A stretch of DNA of 30,570 bases from a virus (taxonomy: Duplodnaviria; Heunggongvirae; Uroviricota; Caudoviricetes), in the IMG/VR virus record IMGVR_UViG_2617270980_000010; one strand, 5' to 3'. A program made the translations under genes and the position numbers. Under the pieces are notes generated by a model, which was given only the letters and a program-made list of their open reading frames with translations, ran no database searches and had not been told where the DNA came from. The number at the start of each line of letters is the position of its first letter. The first letter of the stretch is position 1. This document shows positions 3,269 through 10,474 of this stretch, piece after piece.

Positions 3269-3493
3269 ATGCCGGATTATATGGATCACATTCAGGAGCG
3301 ACAGACGGAATCACTGACTCGCCAGATTAACGCCGCTCGGGTGAAGCCGTGCGGCGCTGCTGCGTTGGTTTGCGAAGAATGTGACGCACCAATCCCTGCC
3401 GACCACCGTGCGGCATATCCGTCGGCGACACGCTGTGTCTACTGTCAGTCAGCGCTTGAGTCAAAAGCTAAACACTTTCGGGGGCAGGCATGA
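3269..3493 (+). CDS. TraR/DksA-family C4 zinc-finger protein (P2 orf82-like)
   Basis: 74 aa with a four-cysteine motif (C..C..CxxC...CxxC) in CGAAALVCEECDAP...RCVYCQ. Confidence 0.7.
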   Translation: MPDYMDHIQERQTESLTRQINAARVKPCGAAALVCEECDAPIPADHRAAYPSATRCVYCQSALESKAKHFRGQA

Positions 3494-3765
3494 GCATTCG
3501 TATCGAGATTGGCGAGCGCTATGTCGTCACAAGTGACCGTTTTCAGTTCATTTTGCAGGAGAAAAAGACCGCCGAAACAGGGAAGAGTGCCGGTAAAGAG
3601 TGGCTGGATGTTGTCGGCTATTACCCCAAATTAAACCAGCTCGTTTCTGGTCTGATTCATCACGATATTTTGAGCGGCAACGCTGTCTCTTTTGAAGCGC
3701 TGAGCGCTCAGGTTGAGCTGCTCGGTCAGCAGTGTTTACGGGCTTTTGACGCAAATGGCCGTTGA
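3490..3765 (+). CDS. hypothetical early protein (P2 orf83 position)
   Basis: 91-aa ORF, start overlapping the previous stop (ATGA). Confidence 0.5.
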   Translation: MSIRIEIGERYVVTSDRFQFILQEKKTAETGKSAGKEWLDVVGYYPKLNQLVSGLIHHDILSGNAVSFEALSAQVELLGQQCLRAFDANGR

Positions 3766-6043
3766 TATTCGGGGGCGTTCTGCCCCTACACCGCCACCAC
3801 CATTTGCAAAAGGCACCGGCAAAGAGTTTGCCGGTGTTTACTCATGGAACGCGCCGCGTGAGGCTATTGGGCGCGAGAGACCCCTTACACGTGACGAGCT
3901 GCGTCAGGTGCAAGGCGTTTTATCCAAAATTGACCGCCTGCCTTACTTTTTAAGTTCTCTGTTTACCTCGCGCTATGAATATATCAGGCGCAACAAAAGC
4001 CCTGTGCATGGGCTGTATTTCCTCAAGTCGACATTTCTGCGCCGGTTGTGGCCGCGCATTGAGCGGGTTAATCAACGTAACGAAATGAATACAGAGGCGT
4101 CGCTGCTGTTTCTTGCTGAAAGTGAGAGTTACGCGCGCCTGCCGGGGATGAACGATAAAGAGCTGAAAAAATTTGCGTCTCGTATCGCCTCGCAGCTTTT
4201 CATTATGTACGAGGAGTTAAGCGACGCATGGGCTGAGGCGCACGGTGGCAAAGAGTCGCTTTTTACCGATGAGGCTCAGGCGCACCTGTACGGTCATGTT
4301 GCTGGCGCAGCTCGTGCTTTTAATGTTGCCCCGCTTTTCTGGAAGAAATACCGCAAAGGCCAGATGACAATCCGACAGGCATTTTCCGCCGTCGCTCGAC
4401 TGATTAACGATGAATGGTGGACTATCCAGCTTAAGGCGCAGCGCATGCGCTGGCATGAAGCGCTGCTGATTGCTGCAGGTGAGGTGAATAAAGACCGCTC
4501 GCCGTATGCCAGTAAACACGCCGTCCGTGATGTGCATGCACGTCGCCTGGCAAATCTTGAATACCTGAAATCCTGCGAGCTGGAAAACAAAGTTACCGGC
4601 GAACGTATCGACCTTATCAGCAAAGTGATGGGGAGTATTTCCAATCCTGAAATTCGCCGCATGGAACTGATGAACACCATCGCGGGGATTGAGCGTTATG
4701 CCGCTGCTGAGGGTGATGTCGGTATGTTTATCACGCTGACTGCACCGTCGAAGTATCACCCGACACGTCAGGTCGGGAAGGGTAAAGATAAGACTGTACA
4801 GCTTAATCATGGCTGGAATGGTGAGGCTTACACTCCGAAGGATGCGCAGCGTTACCTTTGCCGTATCTGGAGCCTGATGCGTACCGCTTTCAAAGATAAT
4901 GATTTGCAGGTTTACGGTATGCGTGTTGTCGAACCGCACCACGACGGGACGCCGCACTGGCACATGATGCTGTTTTGCAAGCGCCAGCAGCGCAAAGAAA
5001 TTACCGAAATTATGCGTCGTTATGCTCTCAAAGAAGATGGCGACGAGCGCGGTGCAGCTCGCAACCGCTTTCAGGCTAAGCACCTGAACAAAGGCGGTGC
5101 GGCCGGGTACATCGCGAAATACATCGCCAAAAATATCGACGGTTACGCACTTGATGGCGAGCTCGATAAAGATACCGGCAAGCCGCTCAAAGATACCGCC
5201 GCCGCTGTTACTGCATGGGCGTCAACGTGGCGAATACCTCAGTTTAAGCCGATTGGTCTGCCGACGATGGGGGCTTACCGTGAGCTGCGCAAGCTGCCTC
5301 GCGGGGTCAGTATTGCTGACGAGTTTGACGAGCGTGTCGAAGCAGCACGCGCCGCGGCTGATGGCGGCGATTTCGACCTGTATATCACCGCTCAGGGCGG
5401 CGCAAATGTCCCGCGCGACGGCCAGACCGTCAGGGTCGCCCGTAGCGTCAGTGATGAGGTTAACGACTACGAAGAGGATATCGAGAGGGTGGTCGGTATT
5501 TACGCGCCTCACCTCGGCGCGCGTCACGTTCACATTACCCGGTCATCAGAATGGCGCATCGTTCCAAAGGTTTTGGCCGTTGAGCCTTTGACCTTAAAAA
5601 GCGGCATCGCCGCGCCTCGGAGTCCTGTCAATAACTGTGGAAAGCTCACCGGCGGTGACGTTCCAGTTATGACCCCAACACCGTCTGAGCACGCCGCAGC
5701 GGTGCTAAATCTCGTTGATGACGGGGTTATCGCATGGGATGACCCCGAAGTCGTGACGGCGCTCAGAGATGCATTAAAACACGACGCGCCACAGCAAAAT
5801 CGCCAGCAAAGAAGCGGAGAGCCGTTAAAACCGCATGACGTCGCCCCATCAGGCAGGCTGACTAAATCCGAGCGCGCGCAAATACCGAGCATTCGCTTTG
5901 ACCTTGCGCAGCATGGCATCACCCCGAAACGCTGGGAGCTTGAGGCGCTGGCGCGCGGGGCGTCCGTGACATACGACGGGCAGAAATTCACATATCCGGT
6001 TGCTGATGAGTGGCCGGGGTTCTCAACAAATCAACAATGGTGA
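3755..6043 (+). CDS. A: replication initiation endonuclease gpA (rolling-circle initiator)
   Basis: About 762 aa from MAVDIRGR. Conserved P2 gpA blocks recalled: NAPREA.GRERPLTRDE, VVEPHHDGTPHWHMMLF and GYIAKYIAKNIDGYALDG. Confidence 0.9.
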   Translation: MAVDIRGRSAPTPPPPFAKGTGKEFAGVYSWNAPREAIGRERPLTRDELRQVQGVLSKIDRLPYFLSSLFTSRYEYIRRNKSPVHGLYFLKSTFLRRLWPRIERVNQRNEMNTEASLLFLAESESYARLPGMNDKELKKFASRIASQLFIMYEELSDAWAEAHGGKESLFTDEAQAHLYGHVAGAARAFNVAPLFWKKYRKGQMTIRQAFSAVARLINDEWWTIQLKAQRMRWHEALLIAAGEVNKDRSPYASKHAVRDVHARRLANLEYLKSCELENKVTGERIDLISKVMGSISNPEIRRMELMNTIAGIERYAAAEGDVGMFITLTAPSKYHPTRQVGKGKDKTVQLNHGWNGEAYTPKDAQRYLCRIWSLMRTAFKDNDLQVYGMRVVEPHHDGTPHWHMMLFCKRQQRKEITEIMRRYALKEDGDERGAARNRFQAKHLNKGGAAGYIAKYIAKNIDGYALDGELDKDTGKPLKDTAAAVTAWASTWRIPQFKPIGLPTMGAYRELRKLPRGVSIADEFDERVEAARAAADGGDFDLYITAQGGANVPRDGQTVRVARSVSDEVNDYEEDIERVVGIYAPHLGARHVHITRSSEWRIVPKVLAVEPLTLKSGIAAPRSPVNNCGKLTGGDVPVMTPTPSEHAAAVLNLVDDGVIAWDDPEVVTALRDALKHDAPQQNRQQRSGEPLKPHDVAPSGRLTKSERAQIPSIRFDLAQHGITPKRWELEALARGASVTYDGQKFTYPVADEWPGFSTNQQW

Positions 6044-6048
6044 TTGAA

Positions 6049-6225
6049 ATGGCTGATTTTGCATCGACAAATAGAACCGCTAGTTTTGAGGAATGGCACG
6101 AGCAATTAATAGATTATGCAGAGCTGCGCGGCGGTAGCGCTTCTGACGCGGATGCATGGAGAGAAGATTATGATTCTGGCCGAAGTGTTGCGGATGCCTG
6201 GCATGATGCATGGGGGGATGACTGA
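6049..6225 (+). CDS. small acidic hypothetical protein (P2 orf91 position)
   Basis: ATG at 6049 with GGTGA 5 nt upstream, 58 codons. The ORF-track start at 6010 lies inside gene A. Confidence 0.4.
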   Translation: MADFASTNRTASFEEWHEQLIDYAELRGGSASDADAWREDYDSGRSVADAWHDAWGDD

Positions 6226-6461
6226 TGCATGTAATTCGAGGTGAAATACCGCAGCACCAGACCAGAAATATTAAGTTAATGGCTATCGTTCATCGCCTGC
6301 AGCAGATAATGGTCAATGAGAATTTGACCCCCGCCGAGCTGGTCGGGTGCGCCGAAATAGTCAGGGATAATTACGGCAGGCTGTACGATATTAGTAATCC
6401 GAAAATTGAGGCGTTTACACCGGCGAGAGGTCCGATTATTCCGCCGCCCCGCCGACCATAG
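6225..6461 (+). CDS. hypothetical protein in the old/tin cargo slot
   Basis: 78-aa ORF whose ATG overlaps the previous stop (TGATG). No recognisable motif. Confidence 0.45.
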   Translation: MHVIRGEIPQHQTRNIKLMAIVHRLQQIMVNENLTPAELVGCAEIVRDNYGRLYDISNPKIEAFTPARGPIIPPPRRP

Positions 6462-6743
6462 CAAACGCCGCCGGTGCTGAAACTCGCTTTCAGTGCTGGC
6501 GGGGTTGAACAACGAGCCCCGCGAGGCGTTAGCCTGCCCCGTTGAGACCGACCCAAACCGGCACGATTAAAACCGGTTTTATTATGCCATTTTCCCGCGA
6601 TTTCCCCGTTTTTTAGCCGTGCATGCAACAGGTGCATGGTTTTGCATGCGTCAGGCTTGCACGTTCTGGCCGTGCGCCGCCAGAGCTGGCGCGGATCCAG
6701 AGTGGTCATGCAACTGCATTAAAACCGACCCATAAAGCGGGCA

Positions 6744-6762
6744 GGCGTGGCGGGGAAAGCAT
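6744..6762. other. cos cohesive-end sequence GGCGTGGCGGGGAAAGCAT
   Basis: Seen directly at 6744..6762 in the GC-rich noncoding stretch just beyond the portal gene, where P2-family cos lies. From memory it matches the 19-nt cohesive end of the P2/186 family (186-type variant). Confidence 0.6.
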
Positions 6763-6906
6763 TGCGCGCCAGCGGGGGGGCGTAATAATAAAAATTATCG
6801 TCTGAGCGCGTCGTGATGGCGCTGTCGTGGTTGCTGTCGGCTCGTTGGTGGTCTGGCGTGGTCGTGCGCGTGTGGCGCGTCTGAGGCGTGATGGTTTCGG
6901 GGTATG

Positions 6907-6928
6907 AAAAAGCCGCCATGCTGGCGGC
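6907..6928 (-). terminator. rho-independent terminator of the P-Q late operon
   Basis: On the minus strand, hairpin GCCGCCA-GC-ATGGCGGC followed by a T5 run, immediately downstream of the portal stop. Confidence 0.55.
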
Positions 6929-6939
6929 TTGAGGGGGAG

Positions 6940-7962
6940 TTATTCCGGGTTATCGAGGGTGTACTCTTTGAACCTGATGACCTCCATGCCGAGCCAGTCG
7001 TTTACCTCCCTGAACCTGTCCTGCAGGGGTGACAGCTCGTTACGCACAAATACCTTTGCCACCTTCTCAACGTCACCGAGTGAACCGATATTCTCGGGCT
7101 TGCCGCCCATGAGCTGGAAAGGTACGCGGTGCGCGTCCATCAGGTCGGCGGCACTGGCTTTCTTGATGTTGAAAAAGTCATCCTTTGTGGCGACCTCGCT
7201 CAGTGGCACGATTTTGATGCCGTCCGGTTTTCCGCCGGGAGCGTAGAAAAACAGGTTCTTAAAGTTGCCGAGACCTTTCGAGTTGCGCATCGCCTCGCGC
7301 AGCGATTCGACGTCGGTCGCACTTTGCGCCGGGTCGGTCACATACATGATGTAACCCGCGTGCGCGCCGTTCTGGTAATACTTGCGGCGGAACAGCGTCG
7401 CGGATTCATTCAGCCAGGCAGAATTAAGCGCGCTGAGATATTCGGGCAGGCCGTAAATCTCCTGATTAATGTCGGGCTCCAGCAGGTGAAACACGGTATC
7501 AGGCGCGAACTCATGCGGTAGAGTGAAGTTTTCCACAAACCAGAAAATCGAGTCGTCGACCCCGCGCCGGGTGTATTTGGCCGGTGAGGCCAGTAGCTTG
7601 ATTAACTGGCCGGTGATGCTGTGGCGCTGCTCAAGAAAGGCATTGCCGAAAACCAGATAGTCGAGTGCAAAGCGGCTGAAATCCTGACGGGATAGCAACG
7701 GGTGCGGAATGTAGGTGCTCGCGAGCACGTTACGCTTAACGTAAATCGGTGAGCTGTGATGTACAGCAGAGCGCAGGCTCTTTGCCAGCCCGGAGAAGCT
7801 GACCGGCGGCTCGTACCATTTGCCGTTACTGATGCACTCGACGTAATCCAGAATATCGCGCTTATCGAGCACCGGCACCGGCTCGCCGAAGGTGAACGCC
7901 TCCATTTTTTGCGGGGCGCTAGCGGTCGTGGCGACTGTTTTGCGTGGCTTGCGCTTGCTCAT
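6940..7962 (-). CDS. Q: portal protein gpQ
   Basis: 340 aa; N-terminus MSKRKPRK...AFTFGEPVPVLDKRDILDYVECISNGKWYEPPV matches P2 gpQ as recalled. Confidence 0.93.
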   Translation of the reverse strand: MSKRKPRKTVATTASAPQKMEAFTFGEPVPVLDKRDILDYVECISNGKWYEPPVSFSGLAKSLRSAVHHSSPIYVKRNVLASTYIPHPLLSRQDFSRFALDYLVFGNAFLEQRHSITGQLIKLLASPAKYTRRGVDDSIFWFVENFTLPHEFAPDTVFHLLEPDINQEIYGLPEYLSALNSAWLNESATLFRRKYYQNGAHAGYIMYVTDPAQSATDVESLREAMRNSKGLGNFKNLFFYAPGGKPDGIKIVPLSEVATKDDFFNIKKASAADLMDAHRVPFQLMGGKPENIGSLGDVEKVAKVFVRNELSPLQDRFREVNDWLGMEVIRFKEYTLDNPE

Positions 7963-8705
7963 GCTGCCACCTCACCCGCTGCAACAGCGAAAGACCAGTC
8001 GCAGCCAAACAGCAGACGATAATCATCGTCGCTGTATTCGCGTTTAATTTCCTCGGGCGCAAAGAGATTACACCCGCGCTGGCATGCTGCATCCAGAGTG
8101 ACCGACTGACGCCAGACACCATCTGTGCAGAATACGCTGTCGCCGGTATTGATTAGCGGTGACGGTCGGTGCTTGCGGGTTGTGCCGTTCCATACCCTGA
8201 ATGCTGCGTAGCTGTCTGATGGTGTGGTGAACATCGTCAGATTGTGGCGTTTATGACTGGCGATAGCTGCCGCGATTTTTGCCGCATTTCGCGGGTTACT
8301 GAACCAACCGAACTCATCAAGGTAGACGTTACCCGCCAGCGCGGCGCAATGGGATTCCTCGCCGACAAAGCTGATAACCGCGCCGTCGTCGAGCTGCAGG
8401 GTGTGGCCGTTGCTTGTCATACGGACACCAACGCGCGCCGAAAGGTTACTCATGTACATCAGCGCCACGCGCGCATGCTCAATAGTGTGAGCAAACCAGA
8501 CCTGATTATCACCCGTTGTCAGTGCATCGAGCAGCGCCTCACGGCTAAAGAGCTGCGTTGCGCCAATCTGGAGCGATTTGGTGATGCTGCGGTCGATATT
8601 GAGTTTCCCGACACGCAACCATGTTACCTGATAGTCAAAGCTGTCATTGTGCAGAATATCGGCCATTGCCTGAATCTGGCTTTGTGAGAAAACGTTATTT
8701 TTCAT
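7959..8705 (-). CDS. stand-alone paralog of the terminase ATPase core, inserted between P and Q
   Basis: 248 aa. Aligns by eye at roughly 30-35% identity to residues about 120-375 of the adjacent terminase P (shared FxYQ, KSxQIGAT, FSREALL, TG.NQ, Walker-B-like Y.DE.W, DG.WRQ..T, GC.LF). Its ATG overlaps the P stop (TAATG) and its stop overlaps the Q start. Confidence 0.7.
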   Translation of the reverse strand: MKNNVFSQSQIQAMADILHNDSFDYQVTWLRVGKLNIDRSITKSLQIGATQLFSREALLDALTTGDNQVWFAHTIEHARVALMYMSNLSARVGVRMTSNGHTLQLDDGAVISFVGEESHCAALAGNVYLDEFGWFSNPRNAAKIAAAIASHKRHNLTMFTTPSDSYAAFRVWNGTTRKHRPSPLINTGDSVFCTDGVWRQSVTLDAACQRGCNLFAPEEIKREYSDDDYRLLFGCDWSFAVAAGEVAA

Positions 8706-8911: not shown

Positions 8912-10474
8912 TTACTCCAGACAGCCGCGGCGAATGGTGTCTTTTGCCTTTAGCACCATCGCGGTTTTCATTTCAGGCGTGTAACGGATGCCGCGTGCCG
9001 CCGGGTAGAATGAGCGCACCAACTGGAATACGCCGAGACCGAGGCCGGTTGCGTCAATGCCGATGTATTCGACGTTGTATTTCTCGGTCAGTTTGCGGAT
9101 GCCCTCAGCCTGAGCGGCAAAGTCCATGCCTTTCCACTGGTGGCGCTCCAGCATGCGGAATTTGCCACCCGAGACCACCGGCGGCGCGAGCACAACGCAC
9201 CCGGCACTGTCGCCGGTGTGTGACGGGTCGTAGCCAATCCAGACAGGTCGCGAGCCGAACGGATGGTCGGCGAACGGGGCAAAGTCCTCCCATTCCTCCA
9301 TCACATCGACCATGCAGCGCTGCAGCTCCTCGAACGGGAATACCGACGCCTTATCGTCGACAAACTCGCACATAAACAGGTTCTTAAAGTCCTCATCACT
9401 GTTTTCGCGTTTGAGCTGGTCGAGGTCGAACAGGGTGCAGCCACCGGCAAGGGCATCCTCAATGGTGACAATCTGCCGCCACTGGCCATCGTCGCAGAGC
9501 TGACCACCGGCGAGCGCGCTGTGACTGATGTCGATTTCGATGCGGTCGGTAATGCGGCTGCGCCCCTTGTTGAACAGCTCGCCAGACCAGAAGGGGTAAG
9601 CGCCGTGCGCCAGCGTTGAAGGTGTTGAAAAGTAGGTTGAGCGCAGGTGCTTCTGCGAGGCCATGCCCGACGCGACTTTGCGCAGCTTCTGGAAATTCGG
9701 GATCCAGAATATTTCATCGACATACAGGTCGCCGTTATGGCTCTGCGCAGTGTTGGAATTGGTACCGAGAAAAATCAGCTTTGCGCCGTTGTTGCCGATG
9801 ACAATCGGGTCGCCGGTCAGGTCGACGTCGACCAGTCGCGCAAACTGGATGATGTATTCACGGAACACGTAAGCCTGCGTTTTGCTGGCCGACAGAAAAA
9901 TCTGGTTATGGCCGGTCTTGAGCGCGCGCAGCAGCGCCTCGCGGGAGAAATAGAACGTCGCGCCAATCTGGCGGGATTTGAGAATGTCGCGAATACGGTG
10001 CGCCAGTCCTGCGCGGTACCACTGCAACTGGTATTCGAAAGACTGGTCGAAAAATAATTCCTCCAGTTTTTCGATAGCCTCGTCGCTGAAAAAGTTCTTT
10101 TTCGGCTTCTTACGTTCGCCCTTGTTACGGTTGGCGACATTGGGGTTAAGGTCGACCTCGTTCCCGGTCTGGCTGTAGCGGTTAACGCGCGCCAGTCGCT
10201 CAATCTGCCGCCCGAGCAGGTCAATCTCTTTGAAGTCGCCGCCTGACTTTTGCGGCTTGGCGATAAGCTGAATCAGGCGCGCCTCAAGGCTGCTTTCAAC
10301 GCGGGAAATCGGTGCGATGCCGTCCCAGCCGTCGCGCTGCTTCCAGCTCTGCACGGTCGGGCGCTTGACCTGCAGCATTTCGGCAATCTGTGGCACGGAA
10401 AACCCCTGCCAGTAAAGCAGCGATGCCTGCCGTCGCGGGTCATGCAACAAGGTTGTATCGGTGGAAATGGTCAT
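8912..10474 (-). CDS. P: terminase ATPase subunit gpP, truncated after 520 codons by an in-frame TAA
   Basis: N-terminus MTISTDTTLLHDPRRQASLLYWQGFSVPQIAEMLQ and the rest match P2 gpP as recalled (590 aa). The ORF ends ...RRGCLE at a TAA on plus 8912..8914. Confidence 0.85.
   Translation of the reverse strand: MTISTDTTLLHDPRRQASLLYWQGFSVPQIAEMLQVKRPTVQSWKQRDGWDGIAPISRVESSLEARLIQLIAKPQKSGGDFKEIDLLGRQIERLARVNRYSQTGNEVDLNPNVANRNKGERKKPKKNFFSDEAIEKLEELFFDQSFEYQLQWYRAGLAHRIRDILKSRQIGATFYFSREALLRALKTGHNQIFLSASKTQAYVFREYIIQFARLVDVDLTGDPIVIGNNGAKLIFLGTNSNTAQSHNGDLYVDEIFWIPNFQKLRKVASGMASQKHLRSTYFSTPSTLAHGAYPFWSGELFNKGRSRITDRIEIDISHSALAGGQLCDDGQWRQIVTIEDALAGGCTLFDLDQLKRENSDEDFKNLFMCEFVDDKASVFPFEELQRCMVDVMEEWEDFAPFADHPFGSRPVWIGYDPSHTGDSAGCVVLAPPVVSGGKFRMLERHQWKGMDFAAQAEGIRKLTEKYNVEYIGIDATGLGLGVFQLVRSFYPAARGIRYTPEMKTAMVLKAKDTIRRGCLE

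Follow-up and report, generated by a model that had tools for sequence, protein, structure and literature searches.

In phage P2, the interval between the replication gene A and the portal gene Q carries tin and old and is a recognized hotspot of variable gene content. What does it mean when this interval is nearly empty in a P2-like prophage, and are the few genes present in it cargo at all? The hotspot is the tin-old "TO region" of P2, with the order gpA-cos-gpQ (Rousset et al., 2022; PMC9122126), and the locus was described in Odegrip et al. (2006), as cited in PMC9122126. We analyzed it in a window of 30,570 nucleotides, by which we mean the whole stretch of DNA under analysis. The window is a P2-like prophage with the usual gene order (int, C, cox, B, orf80-83, A, cos, Q, P, O, N and onward). 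Its early region is of the P2 type, with Cox, RepB and DUF2732/DUF5405 genes, and a fieF-type cation-efflux gene lies at its right end. Over the searched stretch, 5500-7400, the window shares 99.9% identity with a prophage in E. coli strain 600029 (NZ_CM128582.1) whose insertion site adjoins cpxP. Two ORFs outside the interval were also inspected. A 248-aa extra terminase-like ORF was considered as a novel insertion and rejected, being standard in phage 186 and its relatives (92% amino acid identity). A 404-aa ORF in the Z/fun position (20683-21897, minus strand) has sub-threshold Pfam matches and gave no match in a PADLOC search.

The two anchors of the slot are clear. Gene A (3713-6043, plus strand) matches Pfam Phage_GPA (E = 1.9e-116) and is called a replication endonuclease in the record of E. 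coli 600029. It forms the left anchor and is also the last conserved gene of the early operon, ending with TGA at 6041-6043. The right anchor is gene Q (6940-7962, minus strand), which is annotated as phage portal protein, matches Pfam Phage_portal (E = 1.5e-12) and has its stop at 6940. The distance from the A stop to the Q stop is 896 bp. The first 418-bp segment is fully taken by two small ORFs, which we call ORF58 and ORF78 after their lengths in amino acids, and the other 478 bp (6462-6939) are non-coding, with a GC content of 59.6% against 53.7% for the whole window. An earlier note on this DNA had described the interval in the same way, as a 58-aa and a 78-aa ORF followed by about 480 bp of GC-rich non-coding DNA with cos, and had equated it with the known tin/old hotspot of P2. 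Coordinates and content match, the gpA-cos-gpQ position agrees, and there is no cargo system here.

The emptiness of the slot was assessed by its length. We took 80 loci encoding a relative of the window's Q protein, one per species' genome, and located the true A and Q stop codons and the cos 19-mer in each; both anchors were found in 76. The A-to-Q interval in these 76 P2-like prophages of other species ranges from 1189 to 6735 bp with a median of 3249 bp, so that the 896 bp of the window is shorter than all of them. The median agrees with the published mean of 3.2 kb for the hotspot in E. coli, calculated from 18,150 loci (Rousset et al., 2022; PMC9122126). The distance from Q to cos has a baseline of about 149-180 bp (median 177.5 bp over the 76 loci) and exceeds 300 bp in 33 of the 76; at 177 bp, the window is at baseline. 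The cos-to-A distance is 700 bp in the window and runs from 427 to 4951 bp across the sampled loci. An A-to-Q interval below that of the window, 682 bp, is present in E. coli CAVP776, a prophage locus without ORF58 and ORF78; where these two genes would be, about 200 bp of unrelated sequence contain an unannotated 62-aa ORF with a hydrophobic N-terminal portion. The description of the slot as nearly empty is thus backed by its length, and with both points of cargo insertion vacant, as shown below, the slot is better called empty.

The 478 bp of non-coding DNA are functional backbone, made of the cos arms and of hairpin and terminator elements, rather than spare DNA. Homology to many E. coli prophages starts exactly at 6459-6462 and runs through Q, at 91-96% in the closest relatives. 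Directly 3' of the ORF78 stop, at the left edge of this conserved cos-side block, lies a plus-strand hairpin with a 15-bp stem and no U-tail (6468-6502). The RNA fold of 6455-6620 has an energy of -55.6 kcal/mol (z = -2.67), and the hairpin sequence is near-identical in CAVP776, where homology returns at about 6454-6462. This hairpin may be an RNA 3' end or a stability element. RNA folding also gave a weak terminator-like hairpin on the plus strand (6555-6585; 7-bp stem, 11-nt loop and U-rich tail), a candidate terminator of the early operon that was not flagged in the consensus terminator scan.

The functional cos region, with its packaging-signal arms, follows at 6608-6790 and is defined by blocks common with P2 and the satellite P4. 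In the alignment to the P2 and P4 cos junctions, the common blocks extend from about 6613 to past the cohesive-end 19-mer. A core at about 6706-6770 is present in all compared loci, and the left limits of homology, taken from about 80-85 loci, cluster at about 6708 (the commonest), 6678, 6606-6615, 6550-6555 and 6462. The 19-mer itself, GGCGTGGCGGGGAAAGCAT (6744-6762, plus strand), has a single exact occurrence in the window and is carried by relatives at the equivalent place. It differs at two positions from that of P2, GGCGAGGCGGGGAAAGCAC, which was taken from the cosL and cosR features of the P2 record. We take the 19-mer and the packaging module to be of the 186 type. Between cos and Q, the minus strand has the intrinsic terminator of the P-Q operon, tQ (6906-6932), with the stem AAGCCGCCA/TGGCGGCTT followed by TTTTT, which aligns with the annotated tQ of P2. 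A 66-aa CDS across cos (6719-6919, minus strand), which is a PGAP call and is named "aI protein" in SW9, was rejected as spurious: only its cos part is conserved, and most relatives have lost the ORF or carry frameshifts in it. The best result of an Rfam scan of 5900-7100 was a plant microRNA at chance level, with 23.8 bits against a gathering score of 70.

The positions where cargo enters this locus were seen in close relatives. Salmonella assemblies whose early operon ends in A-ORF58-ORF78 were found via a 62-aa form of ORF58, described below, and compared with the window by blastn. Eight such relatives with an identical A-ORF58-ORF78 block have at least four different fillings, and six of them carry inserts at either or both of two points. 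The first point is left of cos (6534-6549) and is vacant in the window. It is occupied in L098, L099, L100 and L102, in which homology to the window breaks off at 6533-6538 and returns at 6548-6550, with about 0.75-1.7 kb inserted. The second point is between cos and the Q terminator (6773-6902), where the window has a short, gene-free filler of ancestral type. Instead of this segment, L097 and L101 have 1.3 kb that encode a 405-aa nSTAND1 NTPase, and L102 has 1.6 kb with ORFs of 272 and 241 aa; an nSTAND1 gene is also found between cos and Q in E. coli TK3888. Inserts on either side of cos indicate that the hotspot is really two separate sites, both vacant here. ORF58 and ORF78 are unchanged in the Salmonella relatives while the cargo differs. 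With both cargo points vacant, the prophage therefore carries neither a lysogenic-conversion nor a defence system here.

The locus is the same as the TO region of P2 in being anchored by A and Q, in adjoining and containing cos and in having a gene content that differs among close relatives. It differs from the TO region in that it has no cargo, no minus-strand genes with their own promoter and no match to a defence model. An anti-phage or lysogenic-conversion system was looked for and not found, since neither ORF matched in PADLOC and both insertion points are vacant.

The vacancy itself could have two histories. The empty state may be derived, with cargo recently deleted from a once-occupied slot, in which case the prophage would be in decay and not a phage that is minimal by nature. 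Some signs of decay are present, as the terminase gene P of the window is cut short by a stop at 8912-8914 when compared with the 99.9%-identical prophage of strain 600029, which for its part has an IS1 inside gene B; moreover, close relatives carry cargo at both points. However, the empty layout is not confined to this element. It recurs in at least two Salmonella assemblies (L096 and L103), which are collinear with the window across 5900-7100 at 93-94% identity and are equally empty. In E. coli, cos blocks without an interruption form a minority but recur, in at least eight genomes (600029, 81EVA and six among the matches listed). The filler at 6773-6902, which is missing from cargo-bearing alleles, aligns partly with the equivalent segment of P2, and this fits an ancestral unoccupied state. 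A repeat search found short two-copy families only, with no deletion scar or flanking direct repeat. We consider recent loss of cargo unlikely, and an allele that is unoccupied without such a loss is the reading we follow.

The remaining content of the slot is the two ORFs, and the second of them had been proposed as the only candidate cargo. ORF78 (6225-6461, plus strand) starts with ATG at 6225, ends with TAG at 6459-6461 and encodes a basic protein (pI 9.6). It matches phrog_11386 over its full length (E = 1.5e-41), with residues 1-68 aligned to profile positions 1-68 of 69. Searches by tblastn found homologues in 37 of about 183 P2-like phage records, including gp92 of Wphi and gp37 of PSP3, to which ORF78 is also alike in position and strand. 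The core KLMAIVHRLQQIMVNENLTPAELVGCAEIVRDNYG is conserved and forms a two-helix core, with a conserved PPRRP tail, and AlphaFold2 predicted a helical hairpin (pLDDT 75). The dN/dS values of 0.03-0.17 indicate purifying selection. The family comprises 193 protein clusters, in which every name is "hypothetical". Since the Wphi orf92 and PSP3 orf37 family is without known function, membership in it gives no mechanism for ORF78.

The position of ORF78 is more telling than its name. In all records inspected, the gene is on the A strand, behind the first cassette after A. That cassette is orf91, encoding a DUF3850 protein, in phages of the P2/Wphi type, and tumA-tumB/DinI in those of the PSP3/SW9 type; here, ORF78 follows ORF58 and not orf91 or tumA-tumB as in the Wphi- and PSP3-type phages. 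The view of the earlier note, which makes ORF78 the single accessory gene in the slot and counts ORF58 as unremarkable backbone, is already largely refuted by these comparisons, and we regard it as very improbable. The position and strand of ORF78 are the same in the Peduovirus (Wphi) lineage as in the Eganvirus (PSP3, SW9) lineage. In several relatives the gene directly joins the left cos arm, and in the closest relatives it remains unchanged while their cargo varies. It is ORF58, not ORF78, that has no homologue in other P2-like phage records. ORF78 could still be called accessory in the widest sense, as it is absent from P2 itself and present in only 6 of the 76 loci of other species.

Hence the proposed assignment is reversed: ORF78 belongs to the Wphi orf92/PSP3 orf37 family and is constant where cargo changes. 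It is a P2-family gene that recurs in a fixed position and not lineage-specific cargo. The earlier note had added that its view would fall if ORF78 were a backbone gene in all relatives. The recurrence and the fixed position were borne out, whereas universality was not. Of 5426 complete E. coli genomes, 457 contain ORF78 DNA, usually behind the orf91/DUF3850 gene; this is about a quarter of the E. coli genomes matching the region. The gene is thus present in a minority of P2-like elements, and the label "backbone" holds within sub-lineages only.

ORF58 has a different distribution. It occupies 6049-6225 on the plus strand, with ATG at 6049, TGA at 6223-6225 and a Shine-Dalgarno-like GGTGA motif 5 nt upstream of the start. 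Translation could also begin at an in-frame ATG at 6037, which overlaps the A stop; the resulting 62-aa form is the one that other pipelines call. The protein is acidic (pI 4.1), with 15 acidic and 4 basic residues. AlphaFold2 gave a three-helix bundle (pLDDT 87.7, pTM 0.72), and dN/dS of 0.05-0.13 in divergent pairs indicates purifying selection. ORF58 matches phrog_519, a family of unknown function, through its C-terminal part only (E = 1.7e-18). In tblastn searches across phage records, no homologue was found in any P2-like phage record, and the homologues were in 184 other phage records, of Stx and lambdoid phages, Rac, many Salmonella phages and Vi1-like phages; the Vi1-like carriers are Klebsiella and Serratia phages of about 157 kb. 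ORF58 DNA is present in 1643 of 5426 E. coli genomes at identities of 80% or below. Among the E. coli rows inspected, the context was either a lambdoid nin-like array beside a DUF7167 gene or a plasmid of about 60 kb beside a DUF1187 gene, and only strain 600029 had ORF58 in a P2 context. The DUF1187-linked plasmids with ORF58-like genes are of the IncI2 type, and one of them is pMCR-1. The order A-ORF58-ORF78 is also found in a Scandinavium prophage (L041).

The small ORFs of the lambdoid nin/ea arrays and the DUF1187-linked ORF of IncI2 plasmids are likewise 58 aa long and have 58-66% amino acid identity to ORF58. They also start in tight overlap with the preceding gene. The upstream partner differs, being a 60-71-aa DUF7167 or DUF1187 protein in the lambdoid and IncI2 copies and the P2-like replication protein A here. 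Homology to the lambdoid and plasmid copies starts at the ORF58 start codon, and homology to other P2-like prophages returns at the ORF78 start codon. These breaks indicate that ORF58 is a cassette that replaces orf91 at gene boundaries. Orf91 of P2, a DUF3850/ASCH-like protein of 109 aa, has the same position, from the A stop to the orf92-family gene. ORF58, a phrog_519 match, is unrelated to it in sequence and about half as long (58 against 109 aa). Neither ORF58 nor ORF78 had any Pfam match at E <= 0.1, DUF3850 and ASCH included, and tblastn of P2 Orf91 against the window found nothing. ORF58 is thus the foreign cassette, a widely travelled phage and plasmid protein in the place of P2 orf91.

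Sequence and structure searches gave no functional assignment for either protein. No match to ORF58 or ORF78 was found in Pfam, NCBIfam, PADLOC or PDB sequence searches, whether they were searched singly or as family alignments. The fold search with the ORF58 model gave no PDB match with E < 1 and, in BFVD, uncharacterized phage proteins only; the ORF78 model had no match in PDB. The statement that the two ORFs have no recognizable motifs therefore holds for Pfam, NCBIfam, PADLOC and PDB but not for PHROG, in which both match families of unknown function.

The arrangement of the two genes suggests how they may be expressed. Both are on the strand of A, and the start of ORF58 is 6 nt past the A stop, or overlaps it if the ATG at 6037 is used. 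The stop of ORF58 and the start of ORF78 overlap as TGATG. A simple consensus promoter scan of the plus strand in 5900-7100 found no promoter-like site, and the counts of the promoter and terminator scans were not above shuffled expectation; a promoter within the 3' end of gene A may have escaped so simple a scan. The one promoter-like site, on the minus strand (6464-6435) with a 9/12 match, was not counted as evidence. No LexA box (CTGT-N8-ACAG) was found in the whole window. The same strand as A, the coupled starts and stops and the lack of a detected promoter or LexA box point to early-operon expression in lytic growth. ORF58 and ORF78 would be transcribed from the early promoter together with A and translated by coupling. 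By comparison, old and tin of P2 lie on the minus strand, where the P2 record maps separate transcription starts for them beside cos, and they are expressed in the lysogen from their own promoter; ORF58 and ORF78 lie on the opposite strand to those genes, that of A, with no promoter of their own detected. The two genes more likely serve the lytic cycle of the phage itself than protect the lysogen. Small single-gene defence and exclusion proteins exist, and the size of the ORFs alone is no bar to such a role.

An operon in this place after A is known from phage 186 and PSP3, in which the SOS operon (tum, or tumA-tumB/DinI) has the same post-A position and strand as ORF58 and ORF78. In PSP3 and SW9, the ORF78-family gene is just after the SOS operon. 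No tblastn match to DinI or TumA was found in the window, nor is there a LexA box, and so the pair does not resemble a 186-type SOS operon in content.

The tight coupling of the pair also raises the possibility that the slot is occupied after all, by a minimal system. ORF58 and ORF78 would then form a compact two-gene module, either a toxin-antitoxin system or a small pair for defence or counter-defence. The layout is like that of type II toxin-antitoxin genes, with an acidic protein upstream (pI 4.1), a basic protein downstream (pI 9.6) and the TGATG overlap, and the pair recurs in Salmonella and in the Scandinavium prophage. The two genes are nearly always found apart, however, which disfavours the toxin-antitoxin reading; they are joined in 1 of 5426 E. 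coli genomes. The usual partner of ORF78 is a DUF3850 or DinI gene, and that of ORF58 is a DUF7167 or DUF1187 gene in lambdoid prophages and plasmids. Searches of Pfam, NCBIfam and PADLOC gave no toxin, antitoxin or defence model for either protein, and no promoter of the pair's own was detected. Together, these observations make a dedicated two-gene module very improbable.

The reading that best accommodates the results is that the window carries the known cos-proximal hotspot of P2-like phages in an unoccupied form, composed of two small early-operon genes and of packaging and transcription signals, and we consider this probable. ORF78 is a gene of the orf92/orf37 family that many P2-like phages keep at this position, and ORF58 has been substituted, precisely from one gene boundary to the next, for the orf91 (DUF3850) cassette that is usual there. 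Earlier work had already described the locus, how variable it is and how close it lies to cos, and the allele is an ordinary one.

The function of ORF58 invites one further suggestion. It may act in counter-defence or host takeover as a broadly mobile factor, recruited by the P2 early operon in replacement of orf91. The basis for this is its confidently predicted, very acidic three-helix fold, the purifying selection and the range of its carriers, which include lambdoid prophages (in about 30% of E. coli genomes), lytic Vi1-like phages, IncI2-type plasmids and this P2 lineage. In all of them, the family is set in early-expressed arrays of tightly overlapping small genes. We offer this as a speculative and rather improbable proposal. 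If it is true, the "empty" defence slot adjoins an offensive gene and not a defensive one.

For the P2-like phages, the allele described here is a clean empty reference. It fixes the cargo points to about 15 bp left of cos and to a replaceable segment of 130 bp right of it, and it can aid automated delimitation of cargo in P2-like prophages, although its practical value is small. ORF58 is a member of a very widespread, uncharacterized family of mobile small proteins and a possible candidate for counter-defence screening. The locus also advises caution, in that not every gene between gpA and gpQ is hotspot cargo: orf91, orf92 and the tum-type genes are part of the early operon, share the strand of A and behave as backbone of their lineages.

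Across the whole window, the prophage is a mosaic that joins a P2-type early region to a cos 19-mer (6744-6762) and a packaging module of the 186 type. The early region carries Cox, a C-type repressor and orf80-83, and no LexA box, tum or DinI was found in it. The 186-type packaging module includes a 340-aa Q, the portal protein, and an extra 248-aa ORF (7959-8705, minus strand) between P, the terminase large-subunit gene, and Q. This ORF is a paralogue of the P ATPase domain, with 36% identity to P residues 125-371, and the similarity extends over the part of P where the Walker motifs would be expected. The possibility that the ORF is a novelty was ruled out by its presence in phage 186, PSP3, EtG, and SW9, whose counterparts show 87-92% amino-acid identity. 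Unlike the window, P2 and E. coli CAVP776 do not have the ORF. Its annotation apparently goes no further than 'terminase large subunit'.

The P ORF itself (8912-10474, minus strand) ends at a premature stop at 8912-8914. The codon is TAA in the window, whereas it is TAC (Tyr) in E. coli strain 600029, whose prophage is 99.9% identical to the window over the region searched (5500-7400). The stop leaves a window P product of 520 rather than 589 aa, with a shortened nuclease domain. A second substitution in P, His to Gln, lies near the premature stop. Either packaging is defective in this prophage or the stop is a sequencing error. We also compared gene B of the window (about 2180-2680) with positions 3283-3980 of the strain 600029 locus (L002). 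IS1 interrupts gene B of the prophage in the 600029 RefSeq genome, whereas the B ORF in the window is intact (166 aa). The window thus derives from another isolate or assembly of this prophage lineage.

At cos, PGAP calls a 66-aa hypothetical protein (WP_032237112.1; 6719-6919, minus strand) that spans the site. The ORF is preserved in the closest relatives only, and its SW9 equivalent carries the label 'aI protein'. The call is probably spurious, the conserved part being the cos sequence itself. Short motifs of the cos core, ATTAAAACCG and ACCGACCCA (6718-6732), recur about 150-180 bp leftward (6542-6575), and these leftward copies directly adjoin cargo insertion point 1 (6534-6549), which is unoccupied in the window. 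Chance could explain the repeats, or they could be left over from earlier recombination close to cos.

Elsewhere in the prophage, a 404-aa ORF (20683-21897, minus strand) lies in the Z/fun position, with the tail-fibre genes on one side and FI, the sheath gene, on the other; it is the likely accessory gene of the prophage. Its Pfam matches, to N6_N4_Mtase (22.4 bits; cut-off 26.7) and DUF6492, are all sub-threshold, and PADLOC gave no match. Near the right prophage end, a 138-aa ORF (28965-29381, minus strand), with no match in Pfam or PADLOC, directly precedes a host gene for fieF-type cation efflux, which lies from 29650 on.

The two small ORFs of the A-to-Q interval, ORF58 (6049-6225) and ORF78 (6225-6461), are replaced in CAVP776 by about 200 bp of unrelated DNA (3550-3738 of its locus, L003). 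This DNA contains an unannotated 62-aa ORF with a GTG start, 3 nt after the A stop, and the ORF has a hydrophobic N-terminal stretch. A small membrane protein may still be present in a slot annotated as empty.
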